DNA of 64,000 bases from Patescibacteria group bacterium UBA1406 (GCA_002305675.1 DBQA01000006.1:123581-187580); one strand, 5' to 3'; numbered from the stretch's first letter, positions 440 to 63,337 are shown. A program made the numbers and translations. The notes: a model not told the origin generated them from the sequence alone.

Positions 440-842
440 GCTCTCCGTTTAATTTTTTTCAGGACCTTGAGGTCTATTGTCGCCCGTCTCAGGACGGCGA
501 AGGCCTTTTTCCTGTCCGAGGAGTCCTTCTGCTCATGCAGAAGTTTTTCCGCCTGTTCCTTCACCTCGGTTATCTTTTTTTCGTCCAGGTCGTTTTGCCC
601 GAGTGCGCTTGATATCAGGATCCGGACGGTCTTTCCGTCGGTCTCGACGTAGCCGGCGCCGGCGGAAAAGTACTCTTCCTTATCCTTGCTCCTAACTGTT
701 ATAACACCTTCCCTCAATAAAGTCAATAAGGGGATATGGCGCGGCAGGATGGTGATCTCGCCCTCAACTGTCTGGCAGATAACACTATCCACTTCCCTGT
801 CCAGAACCGACTTCTCCGGCGTGATGATCTTCAGTTTCAGCA

Positions 843-843
<1 letters not shown>
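436..843 (-). CDS. atpC: F1 ATP synthase epsilon subunit
   Basis: 135 aa; position directly after atpD; typical epsilon N-terminal beta-sandwich sequence (ITPEKSVLDREVDSVICQTVEGEITILPRH). Confidence 0.9.
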
Positions 844-2231
<1,388 letters not shown>

Positions 2232-3101
2232 TTATGAAACTGCTAACCTGGCGGTATTCATATCCAAAAGCTCATTCGTTATCCTTTCCTGCCTGAGGCT
2301 GTTGCGGTACAGTGTCAGTCTGTAAACCAGCTCCTTCGAATTGTCAGTGGCATTCTTCATGGCCACCATCCTGGCCGAATGCTCGGCCGCCTCGCTTTCC
2401 TCGACCGCTCCCCGGATCTCGCTCTGCAGGAAAAAGTCGAACAATCCGTTCAGAACCCCGTTCACATCCGGTTCGATCACATAGTCGGCCGGTCTCTTGG
2501 TTTCAGCCGCGCCTTCGGGCCGCCCGCCCTTGAACACTTCCAGGTCGAAAGGCAAAAGGGTCTTCTTTGTCGGCCGATACACCAGACTGCTGACAAACTC
2601 GTTATAGTAAAGCTCCACGCCGGAGTTTTCCCCGCCGACGAACCTGTCCCGGGCCAGGGTAAAGATGGCGGTCGTGTTGTCCAGGAATGGCGTCTGGGAC
2701 GAAAAGTCGGCAATTATCTTGCCTCCCATATAGTACAAAAACTGCTGTGCCTTCAGGCCCATGACGATAAACTCGTAATCGTTAAAGTTGTCTATTTCCC
2801 TGTCCAGGAACTTGAACAGGTTGAAATTGAACACCCCTGCCAACCCCTTGTTGGACGAAATGACAATGGCGAGCTTTTTTTTCGCTCCTGTTTTTACTTT
2901 CATGAGCGGGTGCTCGGTGGCCGCGCTGGTAGACACCAGACTTTCGATCGTCTCCTCCAGTGTCAGCCGATAAGGCTTGCCGTGAGTTGCCCTTTCCTGC
3001 GCTTTCTTCATCTTGACGGCCGAAACAAGTTCCATAGCCCTTGTTATCTGGCCCACGTTCTGGATGGATTTGATCTTACTTTTCAGCTGTCTTAGATTCA
3101 T
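2232..3101 (-). CDS. atpG: F1 ATP synthase gamma subunit
   Basis: 289 aa; N- and C-terminal coiled-coil helices typical of gamma; between atpA and atpD. Confidence 0.9.
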
Positions 3102-4611
3102 CCTTCGTTTTGGGGAATATTGTTAAGAAATTCTTGGCGAACTCCTCGAGCTCCTTTTCCACTTCCGGGGAAATGACCTTCTCCTTGGCGATGGTTTTGA
3201 GAAGCTTCGGCCTGTCGGCCTCGAGCATGATCAGAAACTCGTCCTCGAACCGGCCGATCTCGGGAACCGGTATTTGTTCGGTATACCCCCTAACCCCGAC
3301 CCAGATGGCGACCACCTGTTTTTCCAGAGGCATGGGCTGGTGTTTGTCCTGCTTCAGGAGCTCATACATCCTGGCACCCCTGTTTAAGGTTTTCTTGGTC
3401 TCCTCGTCCAGTTCCGAGGCGAATTGCGAGAAAGCGGCAAGTTCACGGTATTGCGCCAGATCGATCTTGAGAGAGCCGGCTACCTGCTTCATGGCCTTTA
3501 CCTGGGCGGCCGAACCGACGCGGGAGACGCTGGCCCCGACATTGATGGCCGGCCTCATGCCCGCATTGAAAAGTTCTTTCTCCAGATAGATCTGTCCGTC
3601 GGTAATAGAGATGACGTTCGTTGGGATATAGGCAGAGATGTCCCCCTCCTGCGTTTCGATGATGGGCAGGGCGGTGATGGACCCGCCACCATATTTCTCG
3701 TCAAGACGTGCGGCCCTCTCCAAGAGCCGGGAATGCAGGTAGAAAACATCTCCGGGATACGCTTCGCGACCGGCCGGGCGCTTCAGAATCAATGATATCT
3801 GTCGGTAGGCCCAGGCGTGTTTAGTCAGGTCGTCATAGACTATAAGCACGTCCTTGCCCCTGTTCATGAAATACTCCGCCATGGCCGTGCCCGTATATGG
3901 AGCGATATATTGTTGGGATGCCGGGCTGGTGGCAGGCGCTGCCACCACGATGGTGTAGTCCATGGCCCCCTTCTCCGTCAACAGGTTGACAAACTGGGCA
4001 ATGGTGGACTCCTTCTGTCCAATGGCAACATATACACAGACGACATCCTGGTTCTGCTGGTTGATGATAGTATCCAAAGCAATGGTGGATTTGCCGGTCG
4101 CGCGGTCACCGATGATAAGCTCTCTCTGGCCGCGGCCAATGGGAATAAGGCTATCAATTGCTTTAATACCTGTTTGCAAAGGTACGGAGACCGACCTGCG
4201 GTAGATGATGCCTGGCGCCACTTTCTCTATCTCCTCGTGGTCCTCTGCCCGGATAGGTGAGAGACCGTCCACCGGATTCCCCAAAGGGTCGACCACCCGG
4301 CCCAAAAGCTTGTTGGAAACGGGTACGCTCATAATCTTACCGGTCAGGCTGGCCTTGCCTCCGACGCTTAACTGCTCGTAGGCGCCGAAGACAAGTACGG
4401 ACACATGTTTTTTCTCGAGATCGATGACCATACCTTTCTGGCCGAAGCCAAGCTCCACCATCTCGTTGTAGCGCGCGTTCGGCAGACCGGTCACCACCGC
4501 TATGCCGTCGAAAATCTGCACGATCTCCCCTGTTTCCACGATCTCCTTCTTGACCTGGTGCGCCTCTATCTGGCTGATGACGTCTTGGACGATTTTTTTC
4601 GCTTGCCTCAT
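3076..4611 (-). CDS. atpA: F1 ATP synthase alpha subunit
   Basis: 511 aa; Walker [10 protein letters not shown]; conserved alpha core; overlaps atpG start by 26 nt. Confidence 0.97.
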
Positions 4612-4614
4612 TGG

Positions 4615-4911
4615 TTACGTATTTAAACTTTCAGTAATTTCCCTCAACTTGGTCTTGAGGGAATAATCCAAAAAGTACGGTCCGAATCTGATGATCAGGC
4701 CGCCGAGGATATCGGGGTCGACCACGTTCTCCAGGACCACCTCCTCAAAAGATTCCAATCCCAGTCCCTTCAGGACCTCCTGCTCCTCCTCCTGGTCAAG
4801 CTTATAGGTACTCGTGACCAACAGCTTCTGGGCCTTGCCGTTCAGCAAGGACTTCAAAGCCTCCTTCAGCTCGGGGCTGGTTCTGGTAGCGCTCACGGTA
4901 TTAGTCGGCAT
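4615..4911 (-). CDS. atpH: ATP synthase delta (OSCP) subunit, unusually short (C-terminal domain only)
   Basis: 98 aa ending ...DPDILGGLIIRFGPYFLDYSLKTKLREI, which matches the conserved delta C-terminus; sits between atpF and atpA; no in-frame extension upstream. Confidence 0.7.
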   Translation of the reverse strand: MPTNTVSATRTSPELKEALKSLLNGKAQKLLVTSTYKLDQEEEQEVLKGLGLESFEEVVLENVVDPDILGGLIIRFGPYFLDYSLKTKLREITESLNT

Positions 4912-5404
4912 GCTTCACTTTCGGCAACTTCCGGGCAACCTCCTTGGTGATCTGCTTCTGCAGGTCACCACCGACAGTTTCCCTAATGGCTTTTTCCGCC
5001 AAGGCCAGGGCTATTTGGGAGGCCTCCTTTTTCACTTCCTCATACATCTTCTCGCGCTCGCTCTCGATCAGTTCCATGTTGTGCTTCCGTATCTCCTCCG
5101 CTTCGACCTGGGCATCCTTCAGGATCTGTCTCTTGGCCTCGTTCGTCTCTTTCTTCATCTTGGCGTACATTTTCTTGAGCTTGTCCTCATAGGCCTCTTC
5201 CAAGGCCACCTTCCTCTCATACAGCTCTTTCTCTTTCTTCTCGTACGCCTCGATCTTCTTGATGGCAGATTTCTCCTTTTCCTCCTGTTCCTTGATAGAG
5301 TTCAGGAAAGGCCGGTACACGAACTTTCTGAACACCACAAAAAGAAGGAGAAAGTTTATTACCTGCGCCAAAAGTATCTTGATATCGATCCCTAAATTTT
5401 CCAT
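4901..5404 (-). CDS. atpF: F0 ATP synthase subunit b
   Basis: 167 aa; N-terminal TM helix then long charged coiled coil (EEKEKSAIKKIEAYEKKEKELYERK...); operon position. Confidence 0.9.
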   Translation of the reverse strand: MENLGIDIKILLAQVINFLLLFVVFRKFVYRPFLNSIKEQEEKEKSAIKKIEAYEKKEKELYERKVALEEAYEDKLKKMYAKMKKETNEAKRQILKDAQVEAEEIRKHNMELIESEREKMYEEVKKEASQIALALAEKAIRETVGGDLQKQITKEVARKLPKVKHAD

Positions 5405-5421
5405 TTGTTACAAAGCTTTTT

Positions 5422-5649
<228 letters not shown>

Positions 5650-5674
5650 TTATATTTTCATCCCCCTTCAATGG

Positions 5675-6484
5675 TTAATGACTGTGGTCGGTGATGGCAA
5701 CTGATAACATGATTGCCGAAAGCATCGAGAACACCAGGGCCTGTATAAAGCCGACAAAGAATTCAAAGACCAGGAACGGGAAGGACGCCAGTACCGGGAC
5801 CAGAAAGGCGACCACGGTCAGAAGCACCTCGCCCGCGAAAATGTTACCGAACAAACGGAAAGAGAAAGAGATAGCCTTCGATATCTCGGAAATTATCTCC
5901 AGGAGGCCGACAAAGGTCTTGATAGGGTTCGTGAAGTTGAAAAATTTCCCCAGGTATTTGCCCCAGCCAAGATATTTGACGGAAAAGACCTGGATCATCA
6001 GGACAGAAAAGAATCCGAGCGCCAGGGTCGTATTCAGGTCGGCGGTACCCGCCCTGAGGAGGGGTACCATCTCGCCGTGCACTTTGACAAGAAGCGTCCC
6101 CACTCCCGGCAAAAGCCCCAGCCAGTTCAGGAACAGGATATAGATGAAGAAGCTTGCCACCAGTGGAAAAAATACATCCACCTTCCCGCCGAAGACCGAG
6201 GCGAAAAGGCCATAGATACCCCTCAGCATCAGGTTCATCACCTGATAGACGCTGCCCTTCTTGGTGTAGAGATAGGCGAGAACGATCAGAATGGCCAAGG
6301 CTATCCAGCTTGTCAGCAAGGAGTTCGTGACCTCCAGGCCGAACAGGTTGAACAGGGGTTCCGCCTTGATGCTGATGTGGGGGGTGCTGGCCGCAGCCTC
6401 ATGGACTGCCCCGGCCTCTGCGGGGATGGGGTTCTTGTCGACTACTTGGTCTTGGACAACTTTCGCAAGTGTGGCAAGCTCCAT
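5675..6484 (-). CDS. atpB: F0 ATP synthase subunit a
   Basis: 269 aa polytopic; conserved RLFGNIFAGEVLL motif of subunit a. Confidence 0.95.
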   Translation of the reverse strand: MELATLAKVVQDQVVDKNPIPAEAGAVHEAAASTPHISIKAEPLFNLFGLEVTNSLLTSWIALAILIVLAYLYTKKGSVYQVMNLMLRGIYGLFASVFGGKVDVFFPLVASFFIYILFLNWLGLLPGVGTLLVKVHGEMVPLLRAGTADLNTTLALGFFSVLMIQVFSVKYLGWGKYLGKFFNFTNPIKTFVGLLEIISEISKAISFSFRLFGNIFAGEVLLTVVAFLVPVLASFPFLVFEFFVGFIQALVFSMLSAIMLSVAITDHSH

Positions 6485-6492
6485 TGATTGAT

Positions 6493-6720
6493 TTACCTTT
6501 CTTTTGTCAGCTTAAAGAGATTGTAAAAACTGGCTACAGTTCCCAAAAATAAAAACACCAACATGAACGTTGGTCGTACACCGAAAATCCTATCAAGAAC
6601 AAGCCCGATTGTCAACCCTAAAAAGATGGGTACCACGGTATATATGCCCATACTTGAGTATTTCAGATAAAACAGTGGGCTCGGCCTTGTTTTCCTGGGC
6701 CGCTTTTCTTTAATGTTCAT
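6493..6720 (-). CDS. AtpZ/AtpI-like small membrane protein (ATP synthase gene 1 family)
   Basis: 75 aa, two TM helices, pattern GL.IGLVLDRIFGVRP.F typical of the AtpZ family; immediately upstream of atpB; overlaps dnaE stop by 11 nt. Confidence 0.6.
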   Translation of the reverse strand: MNIKEKRPRKTRPSPLFYLKYSSMGIYTVVPIFLGLTIGLVLDRIFGVRPTFMLVFLFLGTVASFYNLFKLTKER

Positions 6721-29603: not shown

Positions 29604-31301
29604 ATGAATATCCGATTATTTATCACAACCCTGTTCCTTTTAAGCAATATTCTCGTACGGATACCGGCTGTATCGGCCCAGGGCCCCGGCCAGACGGAGG
29701 CCATCCACATGGTCTGTCTGAACGCAACAGTCGTCAAGAACGCTTCGGTCGACCATGCCGTCAAGCTTGACGGGGCAGGATTTATCCCCAACAAGCAGGT
29801 GGAGATCTGGCGAAAGGTGGAAGCAGGTTTCCAGTGTGCAGTAGACAAGAACGGCTCCCCAACCTGCAACGACACCGACTTTTCCGTCGGCGATATGTTC
29901 AAGGTCATCAACAAGAGCAAGGAAGAAATAAAATCCGATTTCAACGGCAGTCTGTCGGTGGACCTGGTCAAGAGCGCCACCACCACCAGCCAACAACATG
30001 TGTTCTATGGCGTACAGACGGTTGAAGGCAGCAACCTGGAGGCCACCACTGTCGCCCTGAAGCTGGCCACCTTCACCCCCGTGACCGGTGACCAAGTAAA
30101 CTGTGTTTCGGTGCGGTGGGACCCGTACGGGCGCGTGTTCGATGCCGTCAGCCTGGAGCCTATCCCGAATGTCGATGTCACCCTGATGGACGAGACCGGC
30201 GCCAAAGTGCCGAGCCAGCCGGGTATCAAGAATCCGTTCCGGACCCGCGAGGATGGCGCCTTCAGCTTTATCGTCGAGGACGGGACATATTTCCTGGAAC
30301 CCAAAAAGACTACCTACTCTTTTCCCATCCTGCAGACCGAACTGGACGGTCTTAAAACGAAACAGTCAGTCTACACTGACATTTACCGGGGCGAAAAGAT
30401 CATCCAGCAGGGCAAGATACAGCACCGGGATATCCCCATGAACCCGCAAGATCCGGCGAACGCCACCAGTTATCCACCCAAGATCATGAACCTTGACATC
30501 ACCGCCTATAAAAAAAGCGACAAGTCTTACCAACTGGTGTACGGAACTGTCTCACATCCCAAGAGCATCATCTATGCCTACTCGGGCGTCAGATTGGTGG
30601 GCCAGACCGAGGCGGACAATCAGGGGAAGTTCGATCTGGTGATCGAGAACGATAGCATCGACCAGAACATCCCGCTTGACATCAAAGCCAAGAAGGTCAG
30701 CTTGCTAGCCAAGGGAAAGTCCTTCCTTTCCCGGCTAGTCGGGCAAGTGATGGCGGCGGTGGAGACGGAGAGTCAGATGGTCCAAATAAAGCCTATTCCG
30801 ACCTTTCTGATCGGTTTCATCTATGACAAGCAGGGTCAGATAGTCCCGCACTCTAAGGTGCAAATCATAGTACCGGAGATGAACAACCGGATAATCGCGA
30901 CCGTCCAGGCGGATGAGAACGGTCATGTCTATATTCCTCCCCAGCTCATCCCGCCCGTCGGCTATGTGGTCAAAACGTATGACCAGAACGGGCAGGTAGC
31001 CAGTGAGTTCACCCCGCAGGAATTCATCGAAACAAACCAGAAATATTACAGCGACCGGAAGATCAACCTGTATGACCTGGCGAGCGCCGAAACGATAGAA
31101 AACGAGCTCACGAAGAATTCCGGCCAGACCCCACTCGCGCAAAACTTCCGCATCACCCCAGCGGTGACCGAGGTGGCCACCGACCAGGCGGGTAAGGGCA
31201 ACGATTATATCCTGGCGGTTCTGTCCCTCGTTATTGTGGGCGTGTTGGGAGGACTGGGATTGGTTCTCTACCGGATGAAGTCCAGAAGCTCTGTCGTCTG
31301 A
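29604..31301 (+). CDS. large secreted protein with carboxypeptidase-regulatory-like/Ig-like beta domains and C-terminal TM anchor
   Basis: 565 aa; signal peptide (LFITTLFLLSNILVRIPAVSAQG); beta-rich repeats (VSVRWDPYGRVFDAVSLEPIPNVDVTLMDETGAKV...); C-terminal YILAVLSLVIVGVLGGLGLVLYRMKSRSS. Confidence 0.55.
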   Translation: MNIRLFITTLFLLSNILVRIPAVSAQGPGQTEAIHMVCLNATVVKNASVDHAVKLDGAGFIPNKQVEIWRKVEAGFQCAVDKNGSPTCNDTDFSVGDMFKVINKSKEEIKSDFNGSLSVDLVKSATTTSQQHVFYGVQTVEGSNLEATTVALKLATFTPVTGDQVNCVSVRWDPYGRVFDAVSLEPIPNVDVTLMDETGAKVPSQPGIKNPFRTREDGAFSFIVEDGTYFLEPKKTTYSFPILQTELDGLKTKQSVYTDIYRGEKIIQQGKIQHRDIPMNPQDPANATSYPPKIMNLDITAYKKSDKSYQLVYGTVSHPKSIIYAYSGVRLVGQTEADNQGKFDLVIENDSIDQNIPLDIKAKKVSLLAKGKSFLSRLVGQVMAAVETESQMVQIKPIPTFLIGFIYDKQGQIVPHSKVQIIVPEMNNRIIATVQADENGHVYIPPQLIPPVGYVVKTYDQNGQVASEFTPQEFIETNQKYYSDRKINLYDLASAETIENELTKNSGQTPLAQNFRITPAVTEVATDQAGKGNDYILAVLSLVIVGVLGGLGLVLYRMKSRSSVV

Positions 31302-36296: not shown

Positions 36297-36512
36297 TTAT
36301 GAAAGTTCGTTTAATAATGCTCGTCTATACTTCTTGCCGGCATTATCGTAAACGTAAACCCTTTTACATTCGCAGACGATGAAATCCTCACCCTTGCCCT
36401 TCCTGCTCCTTTTCCCGAGCTTCAGCTCCTTGCCGCAACCGACACACCGGCCACCCGTCAAAAGCCACATCTGCAGGGGCTCGATCATCTTTTTGAACAC
36501 TAGGAATTGCAT
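36297..36512 (-). CDS. small Cys-rich zinc-ribbon protein (hypothetical)
   Basis: 71 aa; CVGCG ... CEC pattern; basic; tightly packed between the phosphorylase gene and mltG. Confidence 0.4.
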   Translation of the reverse strand: MQFLVFKKMIEPLQMWLLTGGRCVGCGKELKLGKRSRKGKGEDFIVCECKRVYVYDNAGKKYRRALLNELS

Positions 36513-37772: not shown

Positions 37773-39479
37773 TCAAATTTTTTCGTCCAACTTATCTTCC
37801 ACCGGCAGGTCTGCCGAAGCCGGGGCAAAGGGCGGGGTCTTTCTGTATTTGGAGATGGTCTTTTTCAGGAAAGAGAGCCGAGTGAAAAGGCCCAGGACCT
37901 GTTTCAGCTGCTCCGGGATGAGCACCCAGGCCAGGTAAACATACAGTGATGAGCCGAAAAGGACACAGACCGCCGTCAGTGACAGTAGGTTGATGGTCCG
38001 GGTAGTGTCAAAAACCAGGCCGTCCAGAAGCCTTTTCAACAGCCAGACCCCAAGGGTGGTGATGACCGTGATCATCCCGATAACCGCCACCCGGCTTGCC
38101 ATAAAAAGCAGGCGGATGGAATCCAGTCTTCTGATGAGTATGTAAAAAAGGATAAGCGAGTTGAGGGTGATGGAGATGGTGAACGACAACGCCAGGAACC
38201 AGACCGGCAGGTTGAGATAGCGGATGAATAACACACTCAGGAGAGTGTTGAACATCGTAAATATGACGCCGGTGATAAAAGGAGTCCGCGTGTCCTGGAT
38301 GGCAAAGAACGCCCTGGTGATCACATAGTAGACGGTATGGAAAGGCAGGGATATGGCAAAGATGGATAGGACATTGGCCGTTCTGACTGTTGCTTCCCAG
38401 CCGAACTTGTCGCCGCCGAAGAAGAGACGGACGATGGGGATCCTCAAGGCTGTAAAGAAGATGACGAACGGCATCATGATAAAGGTTATCTGCAGAATAA
38501 GCTTGGTGAAAAGGTTCAGCATATCCTCTTTCTTACCCTGCGCGTACATCCGGGAAAAGAAAGGTAGGGCGGTCTGGGAAATGGCAATACCAAAAAAACT
38601 GACCGGCAGGATCTGGAGGTTTCGCGCCAGGTAAAACGAAGAGTAGCTCCCTACCCCTCGCAGGGTCGATAAGGCAAGATCGACAGTTGCGTCCACCTGG
38701 GCGGTTAGTGAATTGAAGAAGCGCGGCCAGAACAGATGGAAAAATTCCCTGATCTTATTGTCATAGAAGTTGATCTTTATCCTGATCGGGTAGCCAAGGA
38801 TGACCACCCCTAAAAGCAGGGATAGGAAGAAGAGCACTGACCCGACCACCACCCCGTACAAAGCCCCGTAGAGCCCGTAAGGCCTGGCCCACAGTATCAC
38901 CCCGGCGATGATGCCGATATTGTAGAAGGCGGGAGCAAGGCCAGGTATGAAAAACTGCTTCTCAGCTTGGAGCATGGAAGAAATGATGTTCCCCAATAAG
39001 AGGAAAGGTACCTGATAGAATAGAATTAGCAGCGACATGTGGGTTACTATGGCCACCTGGTCCGGTGTATAGCCGGGAACCAGGAACTCAATCATCCGAC
39101 CCGCCGTGAAATTCATGACCAGGAATATCAGTCCCCAAAGTACCAGGAAAATAATGGATAGCGACTGGGAAAAGGCCAGTACCTCCGCCCGATTGTCTTT
39201 TTCCTTGTCCTCGTCCACCATACCGCTGATGATGGGAATGAAGCACGAAGCGATGGACCCGGCCACGAATATCTCAAAAATAAAGTCCGGCAGCCTGAAG
39301 GCGGCAAAGAAGAGATCCAGCTGCTCCTTGTCATAATACCCCGTCAGTATTCTGAGTTTTATCAGCCCCAGAAGTCTGGCGAGAAGCAGGGTCAGCGCTA
39401 CCACCACCGTCGACGAGTAAAGTGTGCCCTGTTTGGTCTGGTATATTCTTTTAATTTGCTGCCACATAGCCTTCAACAT
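37773..39479 (-). CDS. murJ: lipid II flippase MurJ (MviN) with C-terminal extension
   Basis: 568 aa, about 14 TM helices; N-terminal TLYSSTVVVALTLLLARLLGLIKLRILTGYY typical of MurJ. Confidence 0.85.
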   Translation of the reverse strand: MLKAMWQQIKRIYQTKQGTLYSSTVVVALTLLLARLLGLIKLRILTGYYDKEQLDLFFAAFRLPDFIFEIFVAGSIASCFIPIISGMVDEDKEKDNRAEVLAFSQSLSIIFLVLWGLIFLVMNFTAGRMIEFLVPGYTPDQVAIVTHMSLLILFYQVPFLLLGNIISSMLQAEKQFFIPGLAPAFYNIGIIAGVILWARPYGLYGALYGVVVGSVLFFLSLLLGVVILGYPIRIKINFYDNKIREFFHLFWPRFFNSLTAQVDATVDLALSTLRGVGSYSSFYLARNLQILPVSFFGIAISQTALPFFSRMYAQGKKEDMLNLFTKLILQITFIMMPFVIFFTALRIPIVRLFFGGDKFGWEATVRTANVLSIFAISLPFHTVYYVITRAFFAIQDTRTPFITGVIFTMFNTLLSVLFIRYLNLPVWFLALSFTISITLNSLILFYILIRRLDSIRLLFMASRVAVIGMITVITTLGVWLLKRLLDGLVFDTTRTINLLSLTAVCVLFGSSLYVYLAWVLIPEQLKQVLGLFTRLSFLKKTISKYRKTPPFAPASADLPVEDKLDEKI

Positions 39480-39545: not shown

Positions 39546-39791
39546 ATGCCCAATATCCAATCTGCGAAAAAGAAATTAAGGCAGGACAAAAAAAGGTACG
39601 AGCTTAACTTATTTTATAAAAACCGCTACAAAAAAGCAGTCCGGGCTTTCATGGCCGATCCCAAAAAGGAAAATCTCGACAAGGCGGTTTCCCTGATCGA
39701 CAAGGCTGCCAAAAAGAACGTTATACATGAGAATACAGCTGGCAGGCTAAAGTCTAAATTGAGCAAACTACAGGCATCAAAACATGGCTAA
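39546..39791 (+). CDS. rpsT: 30S ribosomal protein S20
   Basis: 81 aa; MPNIQSAKKKLRQDKKRYELN...HENTAGRLKSKLSK typical of S20. Confidence 0.92.
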   Translation: MPNIQSAKKKLRQDKKRYELNLFYKNRYKKAVRAFMADPKKENLDKAVSLIDKAAKKNVIHENTAGRLKSKLSKLQASKHG

Positions 39792-40308
39792 ACAGTTCCG
39801 CTTCAACCTTTTGGCAAAAAAGGGGGGGAACTTATTTGAAGAGACAGCTTCTTTCTTCAATAATTATGCCAGATACATCATCATCCTGACGCAGCTTGTG
39901 GTCCTGGTGGTCTTTTTCATCAAGATCATCCTGGACCAGACGGTCATCGACCTGAAGGAGGCCATAGACCAGAAGAACCAGATCATTCTATCCTCTCAGG
40001 AAATGATCAACAACAGTAACGCCCTGGCGGACAAGACGCGCGACCTGACCGTCCTCATCGATACCATAGAAAAACAGCACGCCAAGATCTACACCACTCT
40101 CAAGAACGTCCCCAAGACTATCATCCTGGACAAGATAGAGCTTGTCAACAACCGTTTTGTGATCGTGGGCCATACCTTCGAGCCGACCGACATCCAGAAA
40201 CTACAGGTCAGGCTGTCCAAGAAAACAGGGTCCAACGTCTCTATCGAAAGGATCAGTAAAGAGCATAACGTTTATAATTTCGAGATTTATATCCTGGATG
40301 AAACCTAA
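39784..40308 (+). CDS. PilN-like bitopic membrane protein (N-terminal FNLL motif, TM, coiled coil)
   Basis: 174 aa; N-terminus QFRFNLLAKK resembles the PilN INLLP motif; single TM (IIILTQLVVLVVFFIKIIL); periplasmic coiled coil. Confidence 0.45.
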   Translation: MAKQFRFNLLAKKGGNLFEETASFFNNYARYIIILTQLVVLVVFFIKIILDQTVIDLKEAIDQKNQIILSSQEMINNSNALADKTRDLTVLIDTIEKQHAKIYTTLKNVPKTIILDKIELVNNRFVIVGHTFEPTDIQKLQVRLSKKTGSNVSIERISKEHNVYNFEIYILDET

Positions 40309-40852
40309 ACAGAAGAAAAGGATCAGTCACGACTATAAGGTCATATCGTTCCTCATTCTGACCATAGCCTTTTTCGGCCTGTTCGCCATCAGACCCTCGG
40401 TCACCATGATCGTATCGCTGCAAAAGGAAAAACAGGAATACGAGAACATCAACCGGGTGCTTGAGAGCAAGATACAGCAGATAATCGCCACCCAAACCAC
40501 CTACATGAAGATCCTCGACAAGAAAGCGCTTATCAACGATGCCATTCCCGATCATCACGAAGTGCAGAAAACCGCCGAGCTTTTCCGCGATCCCATCGAC
40601 ACCACCGTGTTCACGGTCAAAGGTATCCGTATCCTGCCGCCGGAAAAGGAGGGCCTGAACACGATCGTCATCAGCTTCAGCGGCGACGGCGATTTTGCGG
40701 CCATGATGGACTTCCTGGACTACATCTATGACTCCCGGAGGCTTTTCACTTACCGGATGTTCGGGATGCAGATCAAGCCGGCCGGGACCGAAAGCGCCCT
40801 CCTCAACTTGACGACAGACCTACAAACCTACTACTATGTAGGTAAGCAGTGA
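40298..40852 (+). CDS. PilO-like bitopic membrane protein
   Basis: 184 aa; short basic N-terminus, TM (ISFLILTIAFFGLFAI), coiled coil, C-terminal alpha/beta domain; overlaps previous gene by 11 nt. Confidence 0.4.
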   Translation: MKPKQKKRISHDYKVISFLILTIAFFGLFAIRPSVTMIVSLQKEKQEYENINRVLESKIQQIIATQTTYMKILDKKALINDAIPDHHEVQKTAELFRDPIDTTVFTVKGIRILPPEKEGLNTIVISFSGDGDFAAMMDFLDYIYDSRRLFTYRMFGMQIKPAGTESALLNLTTDLQTYYYVGKQ

Positions 40853-40862
40853 TTTTTTTACT

Positions 40863-41069
40863 ATGAAAAGGGATAATGTTGCCGGCAAAAGGGAGTTCTT
40901 GTATTTCTCGTTGGTGTTCCTAATGACCGTGGTGGCCTGGATAGTGGTCGAGGTATACCACCTGGAAAAGAACAAGAAATTCACCGTCGAGTACCAGGAA
41001 AGCATGGGCGTGGAGATCAAACCCCTGCCAAAGGTTGATATCCTGGAAAAGTTGGAAGGGAAAAAATGA
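40863..41069 (+). CDS. small single-TM protein (hypothetical)
   Basis: 68 aa; TM FLYFSLVFLMTVVAWIVV; co-oriented inside the membrane-protein cluster; stop overlaps next start. Confidence 0.4.
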   Translation: MKRDNVAGKREFLYFSLVFLMTVVAWIVVEVYHLEKNKKFTVEYQESMGVEIKPLPKVDILEKLEGKK

Positions 41070-42355
41070 GCTACTACTTTCTTTACAAACCGAAAAAGGT
41101 ACCAACTCTCCTCGCCTACTCGTTTATCATCGTCACCACCCTGGGGCTGACACTTCTTTTAAAGGGCGGCCAGACCAGGAATCTGGTCTCCCGGGCCACC
41201 AAGAACCTGATACCGCAGAACCTCATCGTCAGTAACATCACCTCCACCTCGGCCACCGTCAGCTTTACCACGGAAGTCCCGGCCAAAACGGTGGTCAAGT
41301 ACGGCAGCGGCAATTCCTTGGACAAGGTTAGGTTCGACGAGCGCGACCTCCAGTCACAGACCGCCAGAAGGATCCACTACTTCATCCTCCGGGAACTGTC
41401 CCCCAGTTTAAGGTACAAGTTCGCCGTGTCAGTGGAAGGGCGAGAGCATGGGTCCGGAGACCCGGACTACCAGTTTACCACCCTGAGTTCGTCCATACCC
41501 CCCTCCTCGCATCCACCGTTATTCGGCAAAGTGGTCGATAAGAGCCTGAACGGCGCACCCGAAATCCTGGTCGAACTGACCGTCGCCAAAAGCCCGGGAT
41601 TCAGGTTCACCACCCTGACCAAGGAGACCGGGGAATGGATCATTCCCCTACCGGTGGTCCTGGACAATAGCTATCGTTCCATCACCCTGGCCGAATCCGA
41701 CACCGTTTCCTTCACCTTCAGGGATGCCGATAATACCCGGTCCGCTGCCAGAGCCTATTACAAGGACGGGAGGCCATTGAAAACAGTGGTGATAGGACAG
41801 GACTACGATTTCACGCTCACCGGGTCTGCCGGGGTTCTGGGCACAAACAAGGCAAAAGGGACTGGGAAATATGTCCTTTACCCAAGAACGAATTCCATCA
41901 TCACCACCATGTACCCATCCTTCCGGGGAACTGGAAAGGCCGGTTCCATCATTCAGCTGTCCGTGCAGCCGAATGCCTTCAGCGCCCTTGTGAACGTCGA
42001 CCGGAACGGAGAATGGCGCTACGAGAACAAAACACCGCTCATGCCCGGAAAGTATGAGCTGACCGCAACCGAGAAAGGGGCCGGCTGGACTGAAAAAATC
42101 GTCTTCCTTGTCGGTAAAAGCGGCGAAACGGTCCTCGGCGAGGCAACCCCGTCCGCCTCCATCACCCCTGACTACGGGCCGACCGTGGAGCCGACCGGCC
42201 TGCTGGGAGGGTTGCCAACCTACGCTCCCACCCCGTCACCCGTCGCCCCCACCGTGACCCAGCCTGCCATCCCTGTCGCCGGAGTGAGCAATAATCTATT
42301 GATCCTGATGGCTTCGGGTATCAGTTTATTTGGACTGCTTTTAGTTTTATATTAG
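41066..42355 (+). CDS. surface protein with FN3/purple-acid-phosphatase-N-like domain, Pro/Thr linker, N- and C-terminal hydrophobic segments
   Basis: 429 aa; N-terminal TM; FN3-like (IVSNITSTSATVSFTTEVPAKTVVKYGSG...LSPSLRYKFAVSVEG); C-terminal ...PAIPVAGVSNNLLILMASGISLFGLLLVLY. Confidence 0.55.
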   Translation: MSYYFLYKPKKVPTLLAYSFIIVTTLGLTLLLKGGQTRNLVSRATKNLIPQNLIVSNITSTSATVSFTTEVPAKTVVKYGSGNSLDKVRFDERDLQSQTARRIHYFILRELSPSLRYKFAVSVEGREHGSGDPDYQFTTLSSSIPPSSHPPLFGKVVDKSLNGAPEILVELTVAKSPGFRFTTLTKETGEWIIPLPVVLDNSYRSITLAESDTVSFTFRDADNTRSAARAYYKDGRPLKTVVIGQDYDFTLTGSAGVLGTNKAKGTGKYVLYPRTNSIITTMYPSFRGTGKAGSIIQLSVQPNAFSALVNVDRNGEWRYENKTPLMPGKYELTATEKGAGWTEKIVFLVGKSGETVLGEATPSASITPDYGPTVEPTGLLGGLPTYAPTPSPVAPTVTQPAIPVAGVSNNLLILMASGISLFGLLLVLY

Positions 42356-42364
42356 AATAGATAT

Positions 42365-43144
42365 ATGGACTTCCTTTTTGAATACCCGGTCATCCCCATA
42401 CTGGCCCTATTTGCCATAGGGGGAGTGTTCATCTATCAGGCCAAATCCTATCTTGATGAAAAGAAAAGGAACCAGGCCCCAAGCATCCCGAAGCTAAATA
42501 CCGCCAAGCTGAAAGACAACCCGCAGGAGTTCATGAAGAAGATCGCCCTGAACGAACAGGCCGCAGGCAAACCCAAGAAAGGCAAGGGCATCAAGATATT
42601 CCTGTCTCTAAGCATCATTCTGCTCATCACTGTAAATATGGTCGGCCTGATCTATTTCCTGGGGAACAAGCGGACCACCTATATTCCGAGAGCCAGCACT
42701 TCCCCTACTGCTGTCCCGACCCTTTTTGTCCAGCCGACCGCCGAGCCGACGGATATCATCGACTTCGGTGATTCTTCCCTCTCCCCGACGGTCCCGGCCC
42801 TTTCACCGACACTAAGGCTTCCCTCGCCCACTTTGCCTCAGGCATCGCCCACGCTTCTGGCCTATAACCAGCCGCAACCGTCGAAAACCCCTACCCCGAG
42901 CCCCACCGCCCGGCCGACGGTCACGCCGCTAACCACCCAGGCCGTCCTGCCTACCAATACCCCCACTCCCATTTTCGTGGTGAGCCCGACAAATACGCCG
43001 ACACTTATCCCTTCCCCCACCCAAAAACCCCTGCCGACACCGACCGGAGTTGATAAGGGAATCCCTGAAGCCGGACTCATACAGTTCTCCACCGTCCTCC
43101 TTTTGTTGAGCGTGCTTTTCCTGACTATCGGGTTTGCATTATAG
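42365..43144 (+). CDS. Pro/Thr/Ser-rich membrane protein with C-terminal IPEAG + hydrophobic tail
   Basis: 259 aa; N-terminal TM, second TM, about 130-aa P/T/S-rich low-complexity region, C-terminal ...GIPEAGLIQFSTVLLLLSVLFLTIGFAL; overlaps the topA stop convergently. Confidence 0.5.
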   Translation: MDFLFEYPVIPILALFAIGGVFIYQAKSYLDEKKRNQAPSIPKLNTAKLKDNPQEFMKKIALNEQAAGKPKKGKGIKIFLSLSIILLITVNMVGLIYFLGNKRTTYIPRASTSPTAVPTLFVQPTAEPTDIIDFGDSSLSPTVPALSPTLRLPSPTLPQASPTLLAYNQPQPSKTPTPSPTARPTVTPLTTQAVLPTNTPTPIFVVSPTNTPTLIPSPTQKPLPTPTGVDKGIPEAGLIQFSTVLLLLSVLFLTIGFAL

Positions 43145-45136
43145 CTTGGGCAGCCAAAGCGTAGTGTAGCGGCAATCCGGATACCTGTCACAGGCATAGA
43201 AGCGTTTTTTCTTGCGGGAGAACCTGACCACCAACTCTCCCTGTTTGCATTCGGGGCAGGCAGTCCCCGTCTTTTCCAGGAAGCTCTTGGTATACCGGCA
43301 TTTGGGGAAATTGGAGCAGGCGTAGAACCTGCCAAACCTGGACATCTTGATGACGAGCATCGCCCCACATTCCGGGCAGGCTTCCGTCGTTTTTTCCTCC
43401 ACTTTTATTTTATCCGTATCCTTGTAAGCGACCTCCAGTTCCTGGCTGAGGGGAGAATAAAATCTCCCGACCAAATCCCGCCATTTTATCTTACCCAGAG
43501 CAACATTATCGAGTTCGTCCTCCATTTTGGCGGTAAAGGAGATGTCGAAAACGTTGACGAATTTTTTAACCAATAGGTCCGACACGCTCATGCCAAGTTC
43601 CGAGGGGACCAACTCCCGGCCCTGCTTTTCCACGTAGTGCCTTTCCTGGATGAGTGAGATGATAGGGGCATAGGTGGACGGACGGCCTATCCCCCGGGCC
43701 TCAAGCGTCTTCACCAAAGTCGCCTCCGAATAGCGGGGTGGCGGCTGGGTGGCCTTTTCTTCCAATTCTATGTCCAGCAACTTGATGGGCTGGCCTTTGG
43801 CCAGGCCGGTGATTAGCTCCTTTTCCTTCTTTTCCTTCATGCTCAGGATCAGGAACCCGGGAAACATTATCTGCTCCCGTTCGGTCCTGAACACATCGTC
43901 GGACCCGGAAACGATCAGAATCTTCTGTCTGAGGATAACGGCCTCTTTCATCTGAGTGGACAGGCTGCGGTTGTATATCAGGAAATAAAGCTTGCGCTGT
44001 TCCCCTCTTAATCCCGCTAACTTTTGGCTATCGGGATGGTTTTGGACATTGGTCGGGCGGATGGCCTCATGCGCCTCTTGGGCCAGTTTAGACTTCTGCT
44101 TGTAGCGCCTGATCTTTTCGGATAAGTAGCCCTGTCCATACTTTTTCGCTATATAGGCCCTGGCCTCATTGATGAATTTTTCGGAGATATTGAAGGAATC
44201 TGTCCGGTGGTAGGTTATCAACCCCTCCTCATACAGGGATTGGGCTATGCGCATGGCCCTTTTCGCCGTAAAACCGAAGGCCGAACCGGCATTCTGCTGC
44301 AGGGTTGAGGTGATGAAAGGCGGCGGAGGGGTGCGGCTGCTTCTGTTCTCCGATACCTCGGCTATGGCGTATTTCTCCGTTGTCAACCTGCCCGTCTCCT
44401 CCTTTGCGCTCTTTTCATCCTTCAGCAGACTGGACTGGTATTCGTATTTGCCGTCAAAAAGCTCCAGTTTGTCCGTCCGGTAGAACTCCTTTCCTAAAAG
44501 TTTCACGAGTTTCGCTTCCAGCGGGCCGCCGTGATCGAAAAAACCCTTGACGGAAAAGTATGCCTCCGTTTTGAATTTGTTCCTTTCTTTTTCCCGCTCC
44601 ACAATAATCCTCAGGGCGACCGTCTGCACCCTGCCGGCAGAGAGCCAGCTCTTGGAGAACTTCTTCCAAAGGTAAGGGGAGATCTTATAGCCGACTATCC
44701 TGTCCAGCACCCTTCGTGCCTGCTGGGCGTCGAAAAGCTCCTGGTTCAGCGGCCGGGATTTTCCCAGCGCTTCCCTGAGAGCGCTTTCGGTAATCTCGTG
44801 AAAAACGATACGGTCATAGGCCAGCTTCTTCTTTATCTTGGAACGCAAAATATCGCCGATGTGATAGGCGATCGCCTCTCCCTCGCGGTCCGGGTCTGTG
44901 GCCAGTATCACCTTCTCTGCCTTCCTGGCTTCCCTGACCAGGGGATCCACTACCTTTTTCTTCCCAGGGATTATTTCGTAATCAGGCTCAAAGTTATCCT
45001 CCAGGTCTATCCCGAGCTTCTTCTTGGGCAGGTCCCGAATATGGCCCATGCTGGAAATGATGCTGAAATCCTTCTTGTCCAAGAACTTCCCGAACGTCTT
45101 AGCTTTGGTCGGGGACTCCACTATGATAAGCTGCAT
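43139..45136 (-). CDS. topA: DNA topoisomerase I
   Basis: 665 aa; TOPRIM N-terminus (LIIVESPTKAKTF...GHIRDLP), catalytic Tyr domain, C-terminal Cys4 zinc ribbons (CPECG...C). Confidence 0.97.
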   Translation of the reverse strand: MQLIIVESPTKAKTFGKFLDKKDFSIISSMGHIRDLPKKKLGIDLEDNFEPDYEIIPGKKKVVDPLVREARKAEKVILATDPDREGEAIAYHIGDILRSKIKKKLAYDRIVFHEITESALREALGKSRPLNQELFDAQQARRVLDRIVGYKISPYLWKKFSKSWLSAGRVQTVALRIIVEREKERNKFKTEAYFSVKGFFDHGGPLEAKLVKLLGKEFYRTDKLELFDGKYEYQSSLLKDEKSAKEETGRLTTEKYAIAEVSENRSSRTPPPPFITSTLQQNAGSAFGFTAKRAMRIAQSLYEEGLITYHRTDSFNISEKFINEARAYIAKKYGQGYLSEKIRRYKQKSKLAQEAHEAIRPTNVQNHPDSQKLAGLRGEQRKLYFLIYNRSLSTQMKEAVILRQKILIVSGSDDVFRTEREQIMFPGFLILSMKEKKEKELITGLAKGQPIKLLDIELEEKATQPPPRYSEATLVKTLEARGIGRPSTYAPIISLIQERHYVEKQGRELVPSELGMSVSDLLVKKFVNVFDISFTAKMEDELDNVALGKIKWRDLVGRFYSPLSQELEVAYKDTDKIKVEEKTTEACPECGAMLVIKMSRFGRFYACSNFPKCRYTKSFLEKTGTACPECKQGELVVRFSRKKKRFYACDRYPDCRYTTLWLPKL

Positions 45137-62038: not shown

Positions 62039-63337
62039 TTACTGATTAACTGATGCTCTAACTACTATTCTGAGGTCCGGGTCGGCCTGGGCGCAGGTGA
62101 TAAGAGCGATCTCATCACGGGAGTTACCGGAGAGGACCGATGCCTCCTTCTGGGAAACAGCCTGCACCGAATCCACGGTATAGATCACTGCTTCGCCAAC
62201 TTTGGCCAGAACTATCTGGTCTCCGGCCGCCAGGGTATAAAGATCTCCGAATAGGCCAGCCGAATTGTGACCGTAAAAGACGTTGTTCCCTGCTTCAAGG
62301 ACTTCCCCGTCACCCACCAGATATTCATTGCCCATCATTTCCGCACGGTAGACCTGCTGGTGCAGGCCGAGCTTGCCGATCATGAGGCTTACTCCCGCTA
62401 CCGCTTCGTTCCCGGAAGGGAGCTTTTCACTGGCAGCCAGAAGATTGTCAGCGCCTGTTTTGGGCAGCTTCTTGTCCTTGGCACCCAACACGCCGCCATA
62501 TGTCCTCTGGATGCCTTCCACCAGGGGGTTGTAATTGTCCTGGACGCCCAGTACCTGGGGTTGTGACGTTGCAACCGCTCCCAGGACAACCGGGTTCGTG
62601 GGAGAGGGGCTTTCCGGAGTGGAAGATGAACCGCCACCGTTTCCTCCCCCTCCACCACCGCCGTTACTTGGGGCTGTGGTCGGGGTCGGAGTTGCAGTCG
62701 GTGTAGCCGTGGGTGTCGGCGTACTGGTCGGTGTCGGAGTGTTAGTTGGTGTTGGATCCGGCTTCTCGGGATCTTTCGGATCTTCCGTATCCGTTGGCGT
62801 GGGCGTTGGGGTATACGTAGGCGTGGGAGTGTCAGTAGGAGTCGGGGTATCCGTCGGGGTAGGTGTATTCGTCGTAGTCGGGGTAGCTGGATCTTCTAAT
62901 CTAAAACTAGCATGGCTAATCTCCTGAGTGTTACCATTCTGGTTAGTTACGGTACTATTTATCGTAATTGTTCCCTCTTGAGGAGGATTAACATTACTAT
63001 AGTTGACAGTATTGGCAGCTTTATAACACCACTCGACTACTAACTTACCTTCGGGAATAATATATGCGTAGCTTACAGCCTCGATTTTATCAACCTTATC
63101 CCAACCATTGCCTGATTCTGGACATACAGCCTACTGGGCACTTACCAGCATCGTCTTGGCAAGCATCAAAGAAACTATAGACAAGTAGAAAAAGGCGGTG
63201 AGAGTTAATATAGTATGGACTTTAGGATTTCCCAGAATGGCCTTGATTTTTTTCGCTATACCAGTCATCAAAATACAAGGATAGCACAAAGGCTTGTTAT
63301 TTTCAACTATACTTTTTACTATAAACACTTTTTCCAA
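62039..63337 (-). pseudogene. sortase-family transpeptidase gene (433 codons) interrupted by one in-frame TAG (63131..63133) between signal anchor and ectodomain; pseudogene, assembly error or readthrough candidate
   Basis: Catalytic domain in ORF 62039..62521 (FYGHN His, IALITC Cys, RIVVRA Arg). Same frame is open upstream for 203 codons (N-domain, PT-rich linker, Gly run) to the TAG. Codons 63337..63134 encode a signal anchor (MEKVF...KIKAILGNPKVHTILTLTAFFYLSIVSLMLAKTMLVSAQ). All coordinates are in one frame (1299 nt = 433 codons). Confidence 0.7.

Follow-up and report, generated by a model that had tools for sequence, protein, structure and literature searches.

How does a pair of genes of the pilus type come to stand behind the gene of a ribosomal protein, among genes of the cell wall? 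The question is raised by a block of five tightly packed genes, here called g1 to g5, in a 64,000-nucleotide (nt) stretch of DNA from Patescibacteria group bacterium UBA1406 (GCA_002305675.1 DBQA01000006.1:123581-187580); the whole stretch is termed the window, and positions are counted from its first letter. Candidate phyla radiation bacteria (CPR, or Patescibacteria) make up a large share of bacterial diversity and live as monoderm episymbionts, in which type IV pili (T4P) are thought to underlie host contact and DNA scavenging. The block was described in an earlier note, made from the sequence alone (the original prediction), as five consecutive plus-strand genes between rpsT and topA. Open reading frame (ORF) calling recovered the same ORFs and coordinates, with the block at 39784-43144, after rpsT and convergent with topA. 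The genes and the unit's first gene are as follows (aa, amino acids).

39546-39791, plus strand: rpsT (ribosomal protein S20), with which the conserved unit begins; its orthologues match PF01649
39784-40308, plus strand: g1, 174 aa, PilN-family bitopic protein
40298-40852, plus strand: g2, 184 aa, PilO-family bitopic protein
40863-41069, plus strand: g3, 68 aa, bitopic mini-protein, no family assigned
41066-42355, plus strand: g4, 429 aa, FN3/Ig surface protein, predicted to be exported, with a C-terminal sorting-type signal
42365-43144, plus strand: g5, 259 aa, membrane protein with a Pro/Thr/Ser-rich stretch and a C-terminal sorting-type signal

That the genes overlap or abut each other, as had been noted, is borne out by measurement: the overlaps are 8 nt (rpsT/g1), 11 nt (g1/g2) and 4 nt (g3/g4), the gaps 10 nt (g2-g3) and 9 nt (g4-g5), and g5 overlaps topA by 6 nt. 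In a pattern scan, the first plus-strand terminator of the block comes shortly ahead of the g5 stop codon. A promoter and terminator scan of the block gave counts equal to the shuffle expectation and is uninformative.

In this paper we find that g1 and g2 are real but divergent homologues of PilN and PilO, and that the matching tails of g4 and g5 are, judged by their sequence, cell-wall sorting signals of the sortase type. The reading that we favour, with the scales about level, is that the block is the PilN-PilO part of a type IV pilus machine which is encoded apart from pilM and in which wall-anchored partners stand in the place of PilP and PilQ. With the same even weight, the block can be described as a conserved rpsT-led operon of Microgenomates-type CPR bacteria with lineage-specific envelope partners.

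The PilN and PilO homologues

The family assignment of g1 and g2 came from orthologue sets and profiles rather than from single-sequence searches. Searched as a single sequence, the window g1 has no PilN match in Pfam or NCBIfam at E<=1, and the window g2 matches nothing in these two libraries, PilO included. The closest genomic relatives of the block are metagenome-assembled genomes of Candidatus Roizmanbacteria, and the Roizmanbacteria-type set that was used here contains 31 genome loci and 8 loci obtained via homologues. Among the g1 orthologues from these 39 loci, 29 of 37 match PF05137 at E<=0.01 (best 1.9e-12). A homology search with g1 returned 28 relatives, the most distant of which carry PF05137, and the window g1 is linked to homologues bearing this domain with an E-value of 1.6e-17. 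One of the relatives is named PilN by the Joint Genome Institute (JGI), whose label for relatives reads "Tfp pilus assembly protein PilN"; clusters of the wider family are named only "PilN" or "hypothetical protein". In a search of profiles from the Protein Data Bank (PDB), the g1 orthologue profile matches the solved Myxococcus xanthus PilN (3jc8_N, 8.5e-4).

The AlphaFold2 (AF2) model of g1 (pLDDT 82.9) shows a disordered N-terminus, a single helix at residues 12-107, comprising a transmembrane (TM) segment at 32-50 and a long coiled coil, and then a beta-beta-alpha-beta-beta domain at 113-171 that is ferredoxin-like. The top Foldseek matches of this model in the PDB are the periplasmic domains of GspL proteins (XcpY/EpsL/PulL), with a TM-score of 0.73-0.77 and a root-mean-square deviation of ~2 A. 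GspL is the counterpart of PilN in the type II secretion system. The g1 protein thus has the make-up of a PilN: a short N-terminus of the INLLP type, a single TM helix, a coiled coil and a ferredoxin-like domain. The genomic context is another matter, as motif and partial Pfam checks detected no pilM or T4P cluster beside g1 in the window or in 123 loci, and rpsT is found upstream instead.

The N-terminal motif is the following.

39796-39813, plus strand: g1 residues 5-10, FRFNLL, INLLP-type N-terminal motif, which reads YKINLLP in more distant orthologues

N8 and L9 do not vary among the 37 orthologues, and in 44 distant members of the family N, L and L are conserved to at least 90%, so that the motif is, to judge by this conservation, under strong selection. 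In the T4P systems of Thermus thermophilus and Pseudomonas aeruginosa the INLLP-type peptide is the PilM-binding peptide, and by analogy the N-terminal peptide of g1 would bind a PilM. The conservation of this motif, together with the homology to PilN and PilO, argues for a PilM-type partner of g1 and g2.

A further stretch of g1 (residues 28-68, 39865-39987), covering the TM segment and the juxtamembrane region, is unusually conserved as Y..Y.I.LTQL.VL.VFF.K..LDQ..IDLKE.IDQK; its version in the distant family reads GRYI..TE.IV.LAF.SRFKLDRDL.DL. The polar Q/E within the TM segment and the conservation around it point to a conserved intramembrane partner. A conserved charge pair between the TM segments of g1 and g2 was considered and dropped, since the Arg of the g2 motif FAIRPS is not conserved in the wider family.

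For g2, 34 of 36 orthologues match PF04350 (best 1.6e-10), and 23 of them also match T2SSM_b. The only non-identical relative found by homology search (P0030, 43% identical) carries PF04350. The g2 orthologue profile matches the PilO of P. aeruginosa (2rjz, 3.3e-6) and of M. xanthus (3jc8_O, 5.3e-6), and the alignment to solved PilO spans positions 63-187. Sequence and profile alignment place a TM segment with the conserved FAIRPS at ~13-41; after it come a coiled coil and, at the C-terminus, an alpha/beta domain. These features, in a gene directly after pilN, are those of PilO.

The original prediction had called gene 1 PilN-like (an FNLL motif, a TM segment and a coiled coil) and gene 2 PilO-like (a TM segment and a coiled coil), and had left FtsL/DivIC-like division proteins as an alternative. 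The profile hidden Markov model (HMM) searches that it proposed sustain the first two assignments with the counts given above, the solved structures agree for both proteins and the model for g1, and the alternative falls. True FtsL/DivIC-type division proteins share with g1 and g2 the generic layout of an N-terminal TM segment and a coiled coil. All family-level evidence points to PilN and PilO, however, and searches of Pfam, NCBIfam and PDB profiles gave no match to FtsL, DivIC or FtsB at E<=1. This identity is rejected because no HMM or profile matches and because g1 and g2 carry an extra alpha/beta domain that FtsL and DivIC do not have; it is effectively refuted at the level of homology and we leave it next to no chance.

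The g3, g4 and g5 proteins

The g3 protein has a basic N-terminus, one TM segment with the conserved pattern FLTV.AW...D.YH and an extracytoplasmic tail of ~35 aa. It has no Pfam or NCBIfam match. In 34 loci of the Roizmanbacteria type it directly follows g2, and the two mostly overlap by 4 nt.

The g4 protein (~45 kDa) starts with a signal/TM helix at 14-35, and the conserved SRA just after it, at 42-44, is a possible signal-peptidase site. Then come three beta-sandwiches, namely an FN3 domain at 50-140, an unassigned one at 149-235 and an Ig-like domain of the Big_13 family at 270-349, and a disordered Pro/Thr stalk (353-408) with 43% Pro, Thr and Ser. Pfam matches Big_13 (1.5e-6) and Pur_ac_phosph_N/fn3. 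The AF2 model (pLDDT 77.6) likewise has an N-terminal helix, three beta-sandwiches, a disordered stalk and a C-terminal helix. Foldseek matches in the PDB are generic tandem FN3/Ig proteins, and profile matches are to BIg domains of adhesins such as SiiE (4e-11) and Bap. A specific fold for g4, PilP-, PilQ- or secretin-like or other, was considered and rejected, as Foldseek and PDB profiles gave only generic matches of the FN3/Ig adhesin type.

In g5 a first TM helix (5-23) is followed by a Lys-rich cytoplasmic loop with a conserved PxIPxF/L motif, a second TM helix (78-96), a Pro/Thr/Ser-rich low-complexity stretch of ~130 aa (105-232; 52% Pro, Thr and Ser) and a C-terminal helix. The window protein has no Pfam or NCBIfam match. 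g5 is the most variable member of the block; it is absent in L041 and L042, and is split in two genes in one subclade of Roizmanbacteria (L007:2831-3914, L016:12593-13666, L018:12599-13715, L039:8901-10388). The first gene of the split form encodes 212-222 aa with two TM helices and a folded extracellular domain of ~100 aa ending in LKIEAQLH..DGWLG, and the second encodes a TM segment, a Pro/Thr-rich stretch, LP[TDQ][TSA]G and another TM segment.

A 68-aa TM protein in third place, then two proteins with Pro/Thr linkers and an FN3-like domain, had all been seen in the original prediction and are confirmed here, the FN3 domain in g4. The statement that none of the five has an assignable function was too strong: g1 and g2 belong to the PilN and PilO families, and g4 and g5 carry sorting-type signals, while g3 is without an assigned family.

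Sorting-type signals and a candidate sortase

The similarity of the C-terminal tails of genes 4 and 5 had also been pointed out, with their likeness to sorting signals missed. Both consist of IPxAG and a hydrophobic helix, an ending that among the real genes of the window is found in g4 and g5 only. The features concerned are listed here.

42269-42352, plus strand: g4 C-terminal sorting-type signal, IPVAG at residues 402-406, then a 23-residue hydrophobic helix, without a basic tail
43061-43141, plus strand: g5 C-terminal sorting-type signal, IPEAG at residues 233-237, then a 22-residue hydrophobic helix
62039-62521, minus strand: sortase-domain ORF (PF04203, 1.3e-15) with His (YGHNS) and Cys (ITC) motifs, candidate enzyme for the g4 and g5 signals

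P403 and G406 of g4 are invariant in 27 homologues, and the motifs of its orthologues include PPVSG and IPxxG. In the wider family, g4 orthologues end in PSTEGGVP[DST]SG, a TM helix and a KKK (or RK) tail, which is a complete tripartite sorting signal. Orthologues of g5 carry LPETG (8), LP[LIT]TG (4) and IPxxG. Both window proteins have the hydrophobic helix of a sortase substrate. Their pentapeptides are IPVAG and IPEAG, not LPxTG, and they do not pass the curated anchor HMMs; for PF00746 (Gram_pos_anchor) only one g5 orthologue, from L019, matches, with an E-value of 0.0033 that is below the cut-off. A basic C-terminal tail is missing from the window proteins and from all Roizmanbacteria orthologues, which have hydrophobic ends. 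Non-canonical motifs (IPxAG, PPVSG, VPxSG) are documented and are probably read by CPR sortases. An exosortase-type VPDSG-CTERM signal and other curated CTERM models were considered as well, and none of these NCBIfam models matches the g4 orthologues.

Processing by a sortase would link g4 and g5 to the wall, and g5, if processed as predicted, would have its N-terminus held in the membrane and its C-terminus covalently fixed to the wall. In Microgenomates, sortase is reported to occur almost everywhere (PMC6744442). The sortase-domain ORF of the window lies 19 kb from the block and has 160 aa from a GTG start at 62521; its matches to the NCBIfam sortase models are below cut-off only. A signal or TM segment is absent from this ORF itself and would come with it only if an in-frame TAG were erroneous or were read through. 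Frame analysis shows that the sortase frame is open upstream to 63131 via a Pro/Thr-rich linker and a small domain, and that this single in-frame TAG (63131-63133) separates it from an ORF of 68 aa (63131-63337) whose end is a helix of the signal-peptide kind. The region 62039-63337 may be a single gene (signal, domain, Pro/Thr linker, sortase) that a sequencing error has interrupted, or else a pseudogene or a case of read-through. An LPKTG motif stands just upstream of the sortase catalytic domain.

Conservation of the gene order

In the Roizmanbacteria-type set every contig of sufficient length keeps the order rpsT-g1-g2-g3-g4-g5. In 35 of 35 loci rpsT is the gene next upstream of g1, with a 4-nt overlap in 23, and the rpsT/g1 and g2/g3 overlaps are typically 4 nt. 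The three loci of the most distant g4 homologues (23-29% identity) have murJ on the opposite strand, [rpsT], PilN, PilO, a gene of 62-79 aa and g4; after g4 come an LCP gene or a PMT glycosyltransferase gene, and g5 is absent in two of the three.

An exhaustive HMMER search with the g1 profile found 1055 representative clusters, 426 of them at E<=1e-10, all ~170-200 aa long and with INLLP and the GRYI..TE.IV.LAF.SRFKLDRDL.DL segment. A metagenome scan seeded with distant members then gave 80 loci of at least 482 relatives of this wider family; in the counts that follow only loci that are long enough are considered. g1 is followed by g2 in 57 of 58 loci, by g3 in 50 of 55 and by g4 in 38 of 38, while rpsT is upstream in 49 of 61 and murJ in 35 of 38. 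The order murJ (minus strand), rpsT, pilN, pilO, mini-TM gene and g4 thus recurs in ~120 loci, well beyond Roizmanbacteria; the arrangement is probably Microgenomates-wide and appears to be CPR-wide. The synteny check that had been proposed for the block therefore finds it strongly syntenic.

One possible option is that the block reflects mere adjacency, that is, a pilN-pilO pair and two ordinary genes of sortase-anchored proteins downstream of rpsT, with no shared function. The absence or splitting of g5 in some lineages and the variation between clades of the genes downstream of g4 would fit this option. Yet, g1 to g4 stay side by side, overlapping by 4 nt or separated by gaps of a single digit, over a very deep divergence: relatives of g1 are detectable by profile only and g4 identity falls to 23%, and still the block is there in practically all loci of sufficient length, with g4 in its place in every one of the 38. 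We consider adjacency without function improbable, and because contiguity was held over such divergence we suggest that g1 to g4 act together.

The unit also has constant neighbours. In the window it is flanked by:

37773-39479, minus strand: murJ (lipid II flippase), divergent upstream neighbour, PF03023 on its orthologues; context rather than a proven part
43139-45136, minus strand: topA, convergent, downstream of g5

The setting of the unit is one of wall genes, murJ, yceG and LCP, with GT-C glycosyltransferase genes in the wider relatives. In the wider family g4 is followed by one or two unassigned proteins (160-580 aa), an amine-oxidase/NAD_binding_8 flavoprotein (~405 aa), one or two PMT_2/PMT GT-C glycosyltransferases, a DUF2298 protein (~690 aa) and a convergent LytR_cpsA_psr (LCP) gene. 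Examples of this extended operon are L079:12860-20530 and L117:10802-18325. The presence of GT-C genes in it suggests glycosylation of the Pro/Thr stalk or a wall glycopolymer pathway.

On the other side of the unit, in the more distant Roizmanbacteria clade, a conserved N-terminally anchored protein of 151-170 aa is encoded (L016:9257-9709 and 20 other loci). Its gene shares the strand of rpsT and lies directly upstream of it, with glyS and recO coming before. It has a weak Big_3_5 match only, and may belong to the same transcription unit.

These neighbours bring in a rival explanation, in which a module derived from PilN and PilO serves the envelope and is unrelated to pili. Here g1, g2 and g3 would form a membrane scaffold for export, glycosylation and wall attachment of g4, as an abundant surface protein, and of the Pro/Thr-rich tether g5. 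g4 would resemble an S-layer or be a fibril that spans the wall, and the partners of the module would be sortase, LCP, GT-C glycosyltransferases and the lipid II that MurJ supplies. The neighbours are invariably wall genes, with murJ upstream, LCP downstream and, in wider relatives, the flavoprotein, PMT_2 GT-C and DUF2298 genes between g4 and LCP, and motif scans and partial Pfam checks detected no T4P genes nearby. Co-transcription with rpsT points to expression that is high and constitutive. Pro/Thr stalks are typical targets of O-glycosylation, and the stalks of the block are of this type. The C-terminal part of the wider-family g4 orthologues is weakly S-layer-like (Kustd1514, 1.9e-4; HVO_2072 family, 3.7e-3), far below cut-off. 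There is also precedent for reuse, as PilMNO homologues are known to serve outside pili, in flagellar cages and in Helicobacter pylori, and in Clostridium perfringens PilM, PilN and PilO are needed for the secretion of a matrix protein through the wall (PMC11580942). However, the strict INLLP-type N-terminus implies a PilM-like cytoplasmic partner, for which a pure export or anchoring scaffold has no obvious need; the likeness to S-layer proteins is weak and confined to low-complexity sequence; and g4 is small (~45 kDa) and generic, with its abundance and glycosylation a supposition. We hold this explanation possible, and clearly less probable than a part in the pilus machine.

A related option, somewhat less probable again, is a CPR-wide housekeeping envelope machine that is no part of a pilus. 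In such a machine a cytoplasmic PilM/FtsA-type protein would be coupled via PilN, PilO and g3 to the assembly and covalent wall attachment of g4, as an abundant glycosylated surface protein that is S-layer-like or spans the wall as a fibril, and of g5, as a tether from membrane to wall; MurJ, sortase, LCP and GT-C glycosyltransferases would work with it.

Another hypothesis regards cell division. A connector of the divisome or of wall synthesis would have the g1 peptide bind FtsA, not PilM, and the PilNO-like pair would connect the cytoplasmic scaffold of division or elongation with wall synthesis, replacing the missing proteins of the FtsQLB/FtsN type. The block adjoins murJ, yceG/mltG and LCP, and mraY, murD, murG, ftsA and ftsZ lie 5-14 kb downstream in the window. 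FtsA and PilM share an actin-like fold with a 1C subdomain, and the window FtsA weakly matches PilM_2 (2.8e-5). Against this hypothesis, searches of Pfam, NCBIfam and PDB profiles found no homology of the pair to FtsL, DivIC, FtsB, FtsQ or FtsN, none of the loci examined has the block next to ftsA or ftsZ, and the wall-anchored g4 and g5 have no obvious role in a divisome. The idea is purely inferential and we regard it as unlikely, about on a par with mere adjacency or slightly above it.

The search for other pilus genes

If g1 and g2 are part of a pilus machine, the rest of that machine has to be encoded elsewhere. No pilM, pilB, pilC or pilin gene was found in the 64-kb window or in the 123 loci (1.2 Mb, ~10 kb around each block) by motif and partial Pfam checks, and the original prediction had likewise stated that there are none here. 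The neighbours were checked by clustering of unlabelled ORFs, Pfam on representatives, scans for prepilin and Walker A motifs and phmmer with FtsA. Among the called ORFs of the 123 loci and the window there were no prepilin N-termini and no PilB/T Walker A motifs, and in the loci there were no FtsA/PilM-like matches.

In the literature, T4P genes are described as near-universal in CPR, and PilM, PilN and PilO are among those that are enriched and widespread (PMC6744442). In a closed Microgenomates genome the single T4P locus is reported to contain PilA, minor pilins, PilD, PilB, PilT, PilC and PilM, with PilN and PilO unlisted (PMC7143001), which fits a PilN and PilO that have their genes in another place, such as this block. 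The supplementary tables of PMC12206443 and PMC6744442 hold no PilM/N/O data by lineage.

Proposed mechanism

In the mechanism that we propose for a PilN-PilO part of the pilus machine, the INLLP-type peptide of g1 would dock the cytoplasmic actin-like PilM, which would be encoded with pilB, pilC, pilT, pilD and the pilins at a separate locus. g1 and g2 would pair via their TM helices, their coiled coils and the ferredoxin-like domains on the outer face of the membrane, and the small bitopic g3 may join them. g4 would be exported by Sec, after which a sortase would cut the [LIV]PxxG signal and link g4 to lipid II/peptidoglycan, and g5, with its N-terminus embedded in the membrane, would have the end of its Pro/Thr stalk fixed to the wall as for g4. 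g3 and g4 take the operon positions that PilP and PilQ have in diderm pilMNOPQ operons. With g5, they may give a cell that has no outer membrane the outer, wall-fixed part of its platform. The g1-g2-g3 complex, the contact of g4 and g5 with PilNO and the role in pilus function are steps that we infer.

Several points weigh against this proposal. Partial checks at the level of motifs did not find the rest of the pilus genes in the window or around the relatives, and it is unusual for pilN to lie apart from pilM. Genes of the wall and envelope are the constant neighbours (murJ, yceG and LCP, and PMT-type GT-C and DUF2298 in wider relatives), a neighbourhood that fits an envelope-building role equally well. 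The window g1 and g2 are below the Pfam thresholds; g4, a string of FN3/Ig beads of a generic kind, does not resemble PilP or PilQ; the motifs in the window read IPxAG instead of LPxTG and are not followed by a basic tail; and the sortase ORF, as called, has no signal or anchor of its own. A dedicated surface-structure or attachment module, as suggested in the original prediction, is possible, and a link to a T4P machine that is encoded elsewhere is at least as likely.

The presence of PilN and PilO in CPR and of sortase in Microgenomates is already known. An rpsT-pilN-pilO-miniTM-sortase-substrate operon between murJ and LCP was not found described in the open-access literature searched. As part of a pilus machine, the operon is a testable candidate for the wall-anchoring part of that machine in CPR; alternatively, it is evidence of a PilNO scaffold recruited for envelope assembly. 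In both cases families can be assigned to proteins which most of these genomes now list as "hypothetical".

Other features of the window

The window has the overall look of a CPR genome, and its gene content includes the atp operon, dnaE, uvrABC, dnaK/J, AMP phosphorylase, mraY, murD, murG, ftsA and ftsZ. Between the AMP phosphorylase gene and yceG there is an ORF of 71 aa (36297-36512, minus strand) with CxxC...CxC that is zinc-ribbon-like; a gene of equal size stands at the same position in L001, L003 and L005, and it has no Pfam family. A secreted protein of 565 aa is encoded directly after dnaJ (29604-31301, plus strand), with a weak CarboxypepD_reg-like beta-sandwich match and no IPxAG tail. 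Its counterpart of 584 aa at the same position in L001 has no Pfam match, and it can be regarded as another lineage-specific surface protein. Two long Gly/Val-rich ORFs (GVGVGV...), at 42862-43368 (minus strand) and 62535-62927 (plus strand), are antisense to the Pro/Thr-rich coding sequence of g5 and of the sortase-linked gene, and are mirror-image artefacts, not genes.

Comparison with known systems

Among the closest known systems is the PilM-PilN-PilO-(PilP-PilQ) alignment subcomplex of type IVa pili in P. aeruginosa, M. xanthus and T. thermophilus. g1 and g2 have the same topology and the same order, pilN then pilO, and after them come two more envelope proteins, in the way of PilP and PilQ there. 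However, rpsT instead of pilM is upstream, g3 and g4 are not homologues of PilP and PilQ, and the neighbours are genes of wall synthesis, not of the pilus. CPR lack an outer membrane (PMC6744442), and this organism is a monoderm, so that it has no secretin. The GspL-GspM pair of type II secretion is similar in that the C-terminal domain of g1 best matches GspL and in the T2SSM_b matches of the 23 g2 orthologues; unlike GspL, g1 has no fused cytoplasmic actin-like domain, and no other Gsp genes are present.

With the LPXTG substrates of Gram-positive bacteria (PF00746/TIGR01167) g4 shares the signal peptide, the Ig/FN3 domains, the Pro/Thr stalk, the pentapeptide and the hydrophobic helix. Canonical LPETG is found in g5 orthologues, the full series of motif, TM helix and basic tail in wider g4 orthologues, and a sortase-domain ORF in the window. 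The differences are the IPVAG/IPEAG of the window, the Roizmanbacteria tails without a basic end, the curated HMMs that are not passed and the double-TM anchor that g5 keeps at its N-terminus, by which it would be fixed at both ends. A linkage of sortase substrates to PilN/PilO genes was not found in the open-access literature searched.

The Pam pili of CPR offer another comparison. Their PamR is described as having tandem FnIII domains and a C-terminal TM helix and as tethering a filament to the cell (bioRxiv 10.64898/2026.03.03.709456). Compared by description only, the gross layout of g4 is similar, and the class is reported to hold Pam homologues. In contrast, no Pam pilin- or chaperone-like genes are found in the block by Pfam, its Ig/FN3 proteins number just one, and the pam operon is without PilN and PilO. 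pam operons are described as adjoining ATP-synthase genes (bioRxiv 10.64898/2026.03.03.709456). The F-type ATP synthase operon of the window (436-6720, minus strand) is flanked by dnaE on one side and by CBS, pyrG and rplS on the other (L040), and by this flanking gene content no pam-like operon stands beside the ATP-synthase genes in this contig.

The S-layer glycoproteins of archaea and anammox bacteria (PGF-CTERM/archaeosortase; Kustd1514) resemble g4 in their Ig-like domains, in a Thr/Pro-rich stalk that is O-glycosylated there, in a C-terminal sorting signal, in the adjacent glycosyltransferases of the wider relatives and in weak NCBIfam matches. Yet, these matches are far below cut-off and of low complexity, the motif is sortase-like, not PGF, and a lattice of g4 has no support.

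The last comparison is with the secretion that depends on T4P proteins in C. perfringens (PMC11580942). Its pilMNO genes stand in a normal T4P cluster with the cargo operon separate, and g4 and g5 have no homology to BsaA or BsaC. The likeness is that the organism is also a monoderm, that its PilM, PilN and PilO are needed to bring Sec-exported surface or matrix proteins across the wall, and that in some strains sortase and LPXTG genes are associated with the operon.

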